A stretch of DNA of 64,000 bases from Candidatus Fermentithermobacillaceae bacterium (GCA_012842685.1 DUSI01000003.1:2622-66621); one strand, 5' to 3'; counted from the first letter of the stretch, positions 15,752-16,892 are shown. Numbers and translations: made by a program. Notes: generated by a model from the sequence alone, not told the origin.

Positions 15752-16810
15752 TTACCGGGACTTTTCGCCAGCTTTTTTCCTCAAGAAGTACGGTACCTCT
15801 AGGATGTCCTCGGTGTCGATGGCAGGGAGAGCTTCTCGCCTTGCCGGCATGACTCGTCTTGGATCTTTCCTGTCAAACCCGGTGGCGATGACCGTGACCT
15901 GCACCTTGTCGCCGAAGTCGTTGTCAATCACCGCTCCCCAGATGATGTTGGCGTCTGGGTCGGCGGCCTGCATGATTATCTCGGTAGCCGCGTCGACCTC
16001 GAAAAGGGCCAGGTCAGGCCCTCCGGTGATGTTCATCAGCACGCCGCGGGCCCCGTCTATGCCCGTCTCCAGGAGCGGGCTGGAGATGGCTTTCCTGGCT
16101 GCCTCTACCGCCCTATCTTCGCCGCTGGCTATCCCGATCCCCATGAGAGCTGTCCCGGTGTCCATCATTATCGTCCGGACATCGGCAAAGTCGAGATTTA
16201 TGAGTCCCGGGACCATGACCAGGTCGGATATGCCTTGGACGCCGTGTCTCAGCACGTCGTCGGCGATACGGAACGCCTCGAGTATGGAAGTATCCCTCTG
16301 GACTACCTGGAGGAGCCGGTCGTTGGGGATGACGATGAGGGTATCTACGTACTGCTGCAGGTTCTTGATCCCCTCAAGGGCGACGTTCATCCGCCTCCTG
16401 CCCTCGAAGGAGAACGGCTTGGTGACAACACCCACCGTGAGGGCACCCACTTCCTTGGAGCATTGGGCCACCACAGGAGCTCCGCCCGTGCCGGTGCCTC
16501 CTCCCATTCCGGCGGTTATGAAAACCATGTCGGCGCCCTTTAGGCACTCAATGATCTCGTCTCGAGATTCCTCGGCAGCCTTCTGTCCCACCTCGGGGTT
16601 AGCTCCTGCCCCCAAACCTCTCGTCAGGGCTTGTCCGATCTGCAGTTTCGTGGGCGCGAGAGAAAGGTTCAAAGCTTGAGCGTCGGTGTTGACCGCGATG
16701 AAGTCAACACCCCTAATACCTGCCTCAACCATGCGGTTTACGGCGTTGGACCCGCCTCCGCCTATACCGATAACCTTCAGATTAGCGTACCTCGGCTCTT
16801 CTCCTGCCAC
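15752..16810 (-). CDS. ftsZ: Cell division GTPase FtsZ
   Basis: [10 protein letters not shown], tubulin motif [18 protein letters not shown] and C-terminal peptide [10 protein letters not shown]. Confidence 0.98.
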
Positions 16811-16842
16811 AGAAAGCCACCTACCTTCCGCTGCTTTGGCAT

Positions 16843-16872
16843 AAGTTCCACGTAGTCGCCCGTTTCACCTTC
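16843..16872 (-). promoter_or_regulatory. Sigma-H-like promoter of ftsZ
   Basis: GAAGGTGAA-N12-GTGGAACTT. B. subtilis ftsAZ has a sigma-H promoter. Confidence 0.5.
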
Positions 16873-16892
16873 TACACAGCCTTCTAGGGCCT

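Follow-up and report, generated by a model that had tools for sequence, protein, structure and literature searches.

Order-wide absence of the FtsZ tethers FtsA and SepF and remodelling of the FtsZ tail in Fermentithermobacillales

Introduction

Tethering to the membrane by FtsA, SepF or ZipA is seen as a near-universal need of FtsZ-based division in walled bacteria, and surveys report lineages that have one tether or both, as well as lineages devoid of FtsZ. Here we examine the ftsZ gene of a 64,000-nucleotide stretch of DNA (GCA_012842685.1 DUSI01000003.1:2622-66621, hereafter the window), whose cluster of genes for division and the cell wall (dcw cluster) contains no ftsA, together with the loss of FtsZ tethers across the bacterial order to which it belongs. 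The relatives of this FtsZ place the metagenome-assembled genome (MAG) that carries the window in Candidatus Fermentithermobacillaceae, within the Fermentithermobacillales, an order of uncultured, rod-shaped and spore-forming Bacillota formerly treated as the class-level group DTU015.

Several described systems resemble this situation in part. FtsEX, acting with FzlC, forms an early link of FtsZ to the membrane in Caulobacter, and FtsE binds FtsZ in Escherichia coli; in Bacillus subtilis, FtsEX serves elongation-related hydrolysis, not division, and we know of no case in which it has been shown to be the sole tether. As in these systems, the genome studied here encodes ftsE-ftsX, followed by an M23/EnvC-like gene. 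Clostridioides difficile, which lacks FtsA, EzrA and GpsB, still forms FtsZ/ZapA rings despite SepF depletion (PMC13584725), which hints at another tether, and its DUF881 homologues localise to midcell (bioRxiv 10.1101/2025.06.04.657922). Like the Fermentithermobacillales, it is an endospore-forming member of the Bacillota that has lost ftsA and carries DUF881 genes (ylxW/ylxX) beside ftsQ, but it keeps SepF and ZapA, both essential, whereas the order has lost the two. Actinobacteria and Cyanobacteria rely on SepF as essential tether (Pende et al. 2021, PMC8178401). They share with the order a dcw cluster without ftsA, in which ftsQ and ftsZ are adjacent, and an FtsZ that keeps its C-terminal peptide; in contrast with them, all 36 order genomes lack the SepF family PF04472. 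GpsB binds the extreme C-terminus of FtsZ and matters as an accessory anchor only in the absence of others (bioRxiv 10.1101/2024.05.11.593517). In B. subtilis, Staphylococcus aureus and Enterococcus faecalis it is a membrane-binding protein of the DivIVA fold, of which the order keeps one member; the extreme FtsZ C-terminus is also conserved in the order, but there is no GpsB orthologue and the tail has R-x-x-K and E-K-P-R instead of R-x-x-R. Mycoplasma genitalium and M. pneumoniae likewise have deviating FtsZ tails and belong to a lineage in which FtsA tethering is dispensable. Their tails, however, lack the canonical C-terminal peptide (CCTP) and carry a strong amphipathic helix, whereas the order keeps the CCTP core, has a low helical moment and, judging from its dcw cluster, possesses a peptidoglycan wall.

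Absence of the dedicated tethers

The MAG spans 1.89 Mb in 66 contigs and is 97.5% complete; the window itself is part of contig C12. Its ftsZ is the sole tubulin homologue of this genome (a single copy in phmmer searches) and encodes a full member of the family (446.1 bits against TIGR00065, cut-off 295.2), with a core that AlphaFold2 (AF2) models at a predicted local distance difference test (pLDDT) score above 90 and an N-terminus that could extend by at most about 15 amino acids. An earlier note, made from the window alone, described this FtsZ as short (352 aa), placed the end of sbp 82 bp before ftsZ with no ftsA in the dcw cluster, and reported sepF and zapA as missing from their canonical loci. 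All these observations are borne out. No actin-like open reading frame (ORF) occurs within the dcw/ylm gene run of the window, and the 82-bp gap between sbp and ftsZ contains a Shine-Dalgarno-like GGAAGGTAGGTGG and neither a sigma-70-like promoter nor a terminator. Since ylmE and divIVA are only 106 bp apart, sepF, ylmG and ylmH are missing there, and pheS-pheT is followed by an L,D-transpeptidase gene and later by mutS2, without zapA.

The absence is not confined to the canonical loci. As the earlier note had proposed, the whole MAG was searched with hidden Markov models (HMMs) for FtsA, SepF, EzrA, ZapA and ZipA, and it lacks all five: the FtsA model (TIGR01174) matches only two MreB paralogues and DnaK, the SepF model (PF04472) has no match at E<=10, and no match to EzrA, ZapA or ZipA_C exceeds its cut-off. 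We also built class-specific FtsA and SepF HMMs from genes of other families in the class; with heuristic filtering switched off (--max), these models were run on all 40,816 six-frame ORFs that reach 25 aa and again retrieved only the two MreB copies and DnaK. A regular-expression search of all six-frame ORFs for a SepF-type N-terminal membrane helix (…hh.hhGF-acidic) yielded nothing plausible. Weak SepF-model matches seen in several order genomes (E 0.01-0.08, in frames of ~300 aa) proved to be RapZ/YvcJ P-loop proteins.

The same holds for the order as a whole, which we sampled with 36 species genomes from two families and ten genera, one closed and the other 35 MAGs, within a class census of 210 species genomes (174 of them from elsewhere in the class). 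FtsA exceeds its cut-off in 0/36 order genomes and in 107/174 genomes elsewhere (109 at E<=1e-30), and SepF is present in 0/36 and 137/174, respectively. Over the complete census, 79 genomes encode both FtsA and SepF, 30 FtsA only, 58 SepF only and 43 neither; these 43 comprise all 36 genomes of the order and seven scattered ones, at least one tether being kept in 167 of the 174 genomes outside the order. At least two of the scattered genomes (G039 and G207) belong to families in which other members have SepF, and the remaining five are G085, G091, G170, G056 and G063; with the exception of the last two, which form genus g31, these double absences look like MAG incompleteness. ZipA_C (PF04354) and EzrA (PF06160) were each found in none of 61 sampled class genomes. 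ZapA (PF05164), present in 14 of the 25 other class families sampled, is missing in 35 of the 36 genomes of the order; the single exception (G029) carries it on a 2.2-kb zapA-cvpA-polX contig in a MAG with 3% contamination, and this copy is probably a contaminant. Neither ftsA nor sepF thus lies elsewhere in the genome, the finding that would have undone the earlier note's reading, nor in any of the 36 order genomes, including the closed one. We hold with high confidence that the dedicated tethers have been truly and cleanly lost throughout the order. The only closed genome of the group is that of Ca. Fermentithermobacillus carboniphilus Bu02, predicted to be rod-shaped, motile and sporulating in a description that makes no mention of FtsZ, FtsA or cell division (PMC10215811); the closed order genome of our sample is G006, a single contig, CP062796 being a relative. 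Phrase searching of the literature turned up no account of a walled clade that contains FtsZ but lacks both FtsA and SepF, and the order-wide loss itself appears to be undescribed.

Gene order and evolutionary history

About 27 loci of the order share the arrangement murC-murA-ftsQ-DUF881-sbp-ftsZ-spoIIGA-sigE-sigG-spoIIR-ylmC-HlyD-ylmE-divIVA. The outgroups have the same gene order, except that ftsA separates sbp (or ftsQ) from ftsZ and that sepF follows ylmE: ylmE leads directly to divIVA in the order, whereas SepF-positive relatives have ylmE-sepF-...-divIVA. Two neighbours, ylmG (YGGT) and ylmH, were lost along with sepF, and HlyD-ylmE-divIVA also occurs in the FtsA-only genomes G043, G045, G046, G047 and G050; sepF, ylmG and ylmH apparently behave as one deletable unit.

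A single-gene FtsZ tree, from which a motif filter had left out the in-order rows, was unresolved, and we replaced it by a FastTree phylogeny of eight concatenated dcw proteins (3,586 columns, seven outgroups). In this tree the order forms a monophyletic group with a long stem; G043, followed by G046, comes closest to it among the genomes sampled, and both are FtsA-only and SepF-less. The genus g31, represented by G056 (99% complete) and G063 (90% complete), constitutes a second double loss, with clean deletions in both loci (G056:C27 and G063:C4), which read ftsQ-DUF881-sbp-ftsZ and HlyD-ylmE-divIVA. This loss is independent of that of the order, because G056 groups in the dcw tree with an FtsA-only genome (G049). 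The FtsZ tail of both g31 genomes is canonical (FEIRPF..DLDIPEFLR), and so is their DivIVA helix.

The likely scenario would begin with the loss of sepF, ylmG and ylmH within a group of families that became SepF-less and FtsA-only. FtsA would then have been the sole tether until ftsA was lost twice independently, and on the stem of the order it would have been cleanly excised between sbp and ftsZ, with zapA gone too. We can only infer this order of events, because the tree has just seven outgroups. The two independent losses of FtsA suggest that a back-up tether was already present in the SepF-less group and predated them.

The FtsZ C-terminal tail

The last 19 residues of FtsZ form a peptide that is strongly conserved within the order and differs from that of all other families of the class. 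Among 26 species of family f1, L-1, E0, P2, F4, L5 and R6 are invariant, V1 is found in 24/26, K9 in 22/26, E12 and K13 in 24/26 each, and the terminal R in 23/24, whereas the linker that precedes the peptide is variable. Family f2 has SELFEVPVFL[KR]SKTSDKPPKKDTLR. By contrast, all of the 25 other class families have h-[DE]-I-K-P-F-x(2-4)-[DE]-L-[DE]-I-P-A-F-L-R-R followed by 1-6 residues. Relative to this pattern, the order has lost the IKPF motif, replaced Asp by Leu, Ile by Val and Ala mostly by aromatic or beta-branched residues, and gained a conserved extension. The tail of the window, E-V-P-Y-F-L-R, nevertheless fits the loose CCTP consensus D/E-I/V-P-X-F/Y-L-R/K (quoted in bioRxiv 10.1101/2023.08.29.555414), with flanks unlike those of all other class families. 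The tether-binding tail that the earlier note considered retained is therefore kept as far as this loose consensus goes, but it has been remodelled in an order-specific way.

This remodelling looks like a change of binding partner. As g31 keeps a canonical tail, however, it may simply mean that the order lost its tethers earlier. The h-[DE]-I-K-P-F motif, situated 5-8 residues upstream of DLDIPAFLRR, is present in genomes with FtsA, SepF or both (L099-L126) and was lost only in the tether-less order; it may represent a second contact site for a tether.

Candidate tethers

Without ftsA and sepF, the Z ring must be held at the membrane by non-canonical means. We consider it probable that, once the canonical tethers had been lost, a retained membrane-associated protein took over anchoring via the remodelled tail. 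FtsZ stayed under purifying selection after the loss, its tail would bind a membrane-associated division protein that serves as the only tether, and the P-x-F-L-R core of the tail would still be needed for MinC. MinC is an inhibitor that binds the FtsZ tail in E. coli, and it could alone explain why this core was kept. MinC (TIGR01222, 119 bits, cut-off 95), MinD (TIGR01968, 408 bits) and MinE (TIGR01215, 73 bits) are encoded in an operon mreBCD-pbp2-minCDE-rodA. The lost tethers, the conserved gene order, the remodelled tail and the retained gene set are observed, whereas we infer the existence of a protein tether and its identity. The earlier note had argued for an undescribed membrane anchor should all tethers be absent, with DUF881, Sbp, DivIVA and the HlyD-like protein as local candidates. 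Non-canonical anchoring does follow from the losses, but an undescribed anchor is not forced, as the genome keeps proteins for which FtsZ binding or accessory anchoring has published precedents, namely MinC/MinD, FtsE/FtsX and a DivIVA with GpsB as its paralogue; among the local proteins, DivIVA shows an order-specific substitution, DUF881 has no new cytoplasmic part, Sbp does not dock confidently and the HlyD-like protein is disfavoured.

We compared the candidates in 10-11 order genomes and 8-19 outgroups, and the only order-specific features found were a substitution in a DivIVA helix and an extension of FtsW. DivIVA, which would act like its paralogue GpsB, ranks first, as a tentative proposal that is, taken singly, unlikely. 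It is the only protein of the DivIVA/GpsB fold, in single copy, and scores 53 bits against the GpsB model (cut-off 91). The helix that follows its GY..EVD.FLD groove has L-h-V-A-E in 12/12 order sequences and in 0/19 others, the 19 outgroup sequences all having [EQ]-x-V-[RKQ]-[DEN]. A DivIVA N-terminal extension seen in family f1 was rejected as a conserved binding site, being variable in sequence and absent from family f2. FtsEX (FtsE, 299 bits with a cut-off of 265, and FtsX) ranks second and is slightly more doubtful than DivIVA. The pair formed by DUF881 and Sbp, which appears to be co-transcribed with ftsZ, ranks third, with as slender a likelihood as FtsEX. Another protein, outside these named candidates, comes fourth in our list and seems about as conceivable as DivIVA. 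FtsW carries an extra ~11 residues (approximately [KR]R.R....h.RG.PDY) in 10/10 aligned order genomes and in the window, whereas its N-terminus has only 6-8 residues in 5/8 sampled outgroups. The HlyD-like protein was rejected as a SepF replacement and is disfavoured as an anchor, since many SepF-positive genomes also have its orthologue upstream of ylmE-sepF.

The possible contact between Sbp and FtsZ was modelled by taking advantage of a congeneric locus (L007) in which sbp, the spacer and ftsZ form one frame broken by a single TGA. We folded this natural read-through with AF2, setting Gly at the stop and using a 79-row block alignment, FtsZ alone being the control. Sbp is predicted as four long helices (pLDDT 78-91), and the co-fold neither supports nor excludes it as a partner. 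A DUF881-sbp pair is found at the locus in 2/2 double-loss events and in roughly half of single-anchor lineages, so that the association is not informative. Beyond the C. difficile localisation screen, we found no functional study of DUF881/DUF1290 in the literature. A broader idea, which we advance only as an improbable one, is that Terrabacteria hold a third general Z-ring tether masked by FtsA and SepF, for which the ancient DUF881-DUF1290 membrane module, encoded in this order just before ftsZ without a promoter-like or terminator-like site separating sbp from ftsZ, is the best-placed candidate; this module is presumably also present in Actinobacteria (Rv1823-1825). Were this true, the module would be the only tether left in the order and, independently, in the genus of G056 and G063, the FtsZ tail of the order would be tuned to it, and the Z rings that C. 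difficile forms without SepF would be explained.

Several points weigh against the takeover of anchoring by a retained protein through the remodelled tail. No candidate tether is supported by a direct test. Remodelling is not obligatory after the loss, because G056 and G063 keep a canonical tail, and, given the equally canonical DivIVA helix of these genomes, the A-E substitution of the order may be mere divergence. The tail has R6-x-x-K9 and a terminal K-P-R, and no R-x-x-R of the GpsB type. We detected no new cytoplasmic domain in DUF881, Sbp, FtsQ or the penicillin-binding protein (PBP) of the order, and the AF2 docking of Sbp on FtsZ is not confident, the pLDDT of the last 19 FtsZ residues rising from about 40 to 53-58. 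The tether search covered FtsA, SepF, ZipA, EzrA and ZapA, and not such other described FtsZ partners as FzlC, SepH, ZapD, ZipN, MapZ and SpoIIE. Finally, all order genomes but one are MAGs, and no organism of the order sampled here is cultured.

Alternative explanations

Alternatively, the tether could be a lineage-specific protein of no recognisable family that the order acquired or recruited on its stem, and not one of the retained known division proteins. The conserved K-x-x-E-K-P-R gained by the tail, which no established partner is known to read, would fit such a newcomer, as would the lack of new cytoplasmic domains in the local proteins inspected and of an assigned function for about half the genes in the closed relative (PMC10215811). 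Nevertheless, nothing has been inserted at the former sites of ftsA and sepF, where just the 82 bp and 106 bp remain, and the independent loss in G056/G063, accompanied by a canonical tail, favours a pre-existing shared back-up. We regard a newly gained tether as unlikely.

A second possibility, less likely still, is that FtsZ binds the membrane by itself through its remodelled tail, in the fashion of M. genitalium, and needs no adaptor. FtsZ of M. genitalium provides the precedent with an amphipathic helix of its own (bioRxiv 10.1101/2023.08.29.555414), and in the order the replacement of Asp by Leu and of Ala by Phe, Tyr, Ile, Val or Thr lifts the D-h-L-E-V-P-x-F-L-R-K window's mean hydrophobicity from 0.2-0.45 to about 0.6, with a basic stretch following. 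However, the best 11-residue helical hydrophobic moment (muH) of the order tails, 0.42 (0.31-0.57), is barely above that of canonical FtsZ tails (0.36) and far below those of the SepF N-termini (0.68) and FtsA C-termini (0.74) of class relatives and of the own MinD C-terminus (0.78), so that the tail falls outside the range of an intrinsic membrane-targeting helix (0.42 vs 0.68-0.78). The low moment, the conserved Pro that splits the peptide and the mere 3-residue helix predicted by AF2 make an amphipathic-helix mechanism unlikely, and the second double-loss lineage, moreover, has a canonical tail. A weak lipid contact through the hydrophobic patch and the basic stretch, boosted by polymer avidity, might still contribute.

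That the absence is an artefact, with FtsA and SepF too divergent to be recognised or hidden in unassembled parts of the MAGs, is very improbable: although MAGs make up 35 of the 36 order genomes, SepF is a small protein (a 72-position model) and the ZapA of G029 sits on a 2.2-kb contig, the double absence holds in 36/36 genomes over 10 genera, one of them closed, compared with 7/174 elsewhere, both canonical loci are intact and contiguous down to their residual 82 bp and 106 bp, the unfiltered HMMs of the class itself match only MreB and DnaK, the recurrent weak SepF matches are RapZ, and the search for a SepF-type helix came back empty.

Significance of the loss

The Fermentithermobacillales amount to a natural, order-wide knock-out of the FtsA, SepF, ZipA and EzrA tethers and of ZapA, in bacteria that otherwise have a complete dcw cluster, a Min system, MreBCD and the genes of sporulation. 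We regard the finding as a natural experiment of evolution rather than a new molecular system seen directly. It makes alternative Z-ring anchoring testable, with the 19-residue conserved tail as bait in a proteome of about 2,000 genes, and it offers a natural minimal Z-ring set that can be compared with the engineered minimal divisome of B. subtilis. If the tether is shared with other Bacillota, our view of division in clostridial pathogens would change.

Genomic context

The dcw cluster of the window runs on the minus strand as mraZ-rsmH-ftsL-pbp-murE-murF-mraY-ftsW-murG-murC-murA-ftsQ-DUF881-sbp-ftsZ, where ftsL belongs to the DivIC family and pbp encodes a class B PBP, and continues 3' of ftsZ, on the same strand, as spoIIGA-sigE-sigG-spoIIR-ylmC-HlyD-like-ylmE-divIVA (Table 1). 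In every order locus that covers the place, sbp adjoins ftsZ. The DUF881 protein matches PDB 3GMG (Rv1825) with an E value of 1.6e-13.

Table 1. Position of ftsZ, its tail and neighbouring features in the window.
Feature	Coordinates	Strand	Description
divIVA	9276..9815	-	PF05103 132 bits; candidate accessory anchor
ylmE-divIVA spacer	9816..9921	-	106 bp; site of sepF-ylmG-ylmH in relatives
ylmE/yggS	9922..10638	-	PF01168
HlyD-like membrane-fusion-type protein, ylm operon	10605..11867	-	HlyD_2 75 bits; weak TIGR02828 match
ylmC/ymxH PRC-barrel protein	11967..12224	-	PF05239
ftsZ	15752..16810	-	GTG start; 352 aa; Pfam Tubulin PF00091 178 bits, FtsZ_C PF12327 126 bits
Remodelled FtsZ C-terminal peptide	15755..15811	-	19 residues; consensus D-h-L-E-V-P-x-F-L-R-[KR]-x-K-x-x-E-K-P-R
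sbp-ftsZ spacer	16811..16892	-	82 bp; site of ftsA in relatives outside the order (sbp-ftsA-ftsZ)
sbp (DUF1290)	16893..17240	-	PF06947 105 bits; small four-helix membrane protein; candidate partner
DUF881 (YlxW/YlxX family)	17241..17984	-	PF05949 160 bits; N-terminal transmembrane segment, coiled coil, 3GMG-like domain
ftsQ/divIB	18037..18783	-	POTRA_1 and FtsQ_DivIB_C
ftsW/spoVE	22794..23963	-	PF01098 377 bits; order-specific Arg-rich N-terminal cytoplasmic extension
Interval 3' of pheT (expected zapA site)	58942..60029	-	L,D-transpeptidase gene instead

No murD lies between mraY and ftsW in the window (22794-24933) or in the 19 class dcw clusters fetched, the rest of the genome not having been searched for it. 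Both murB and ddl are also absent from the dcw cluster, and murA sits before ftsQ. The full-length dnaK is located on contig C14 of the own genome, at about 3715-5676 on the plus strand (L003:730-2664) and away from the hrcA operon; its product scores 990 bits with NF001413 (cut-off 648) and 972 bits with TIGR02350, so that Hsp70 is retained. The second MreB paralogue (contig C2, L002:1438-2193, minus strand) adjoins flagellar rod genes. Its mere 251 aa, which begin at model position 82 for MreB, compare with frames of 340-380 aa in relatives, and it may result from truncation, a frameshift or a MAG assembly error. The HlyD-like protein of the ylm operon is kept across the class, with an internal deletion of ~100 residues in genus g4 (G008, G014, G020 and G025), and, judging by its position, it may act in division or sporulation.

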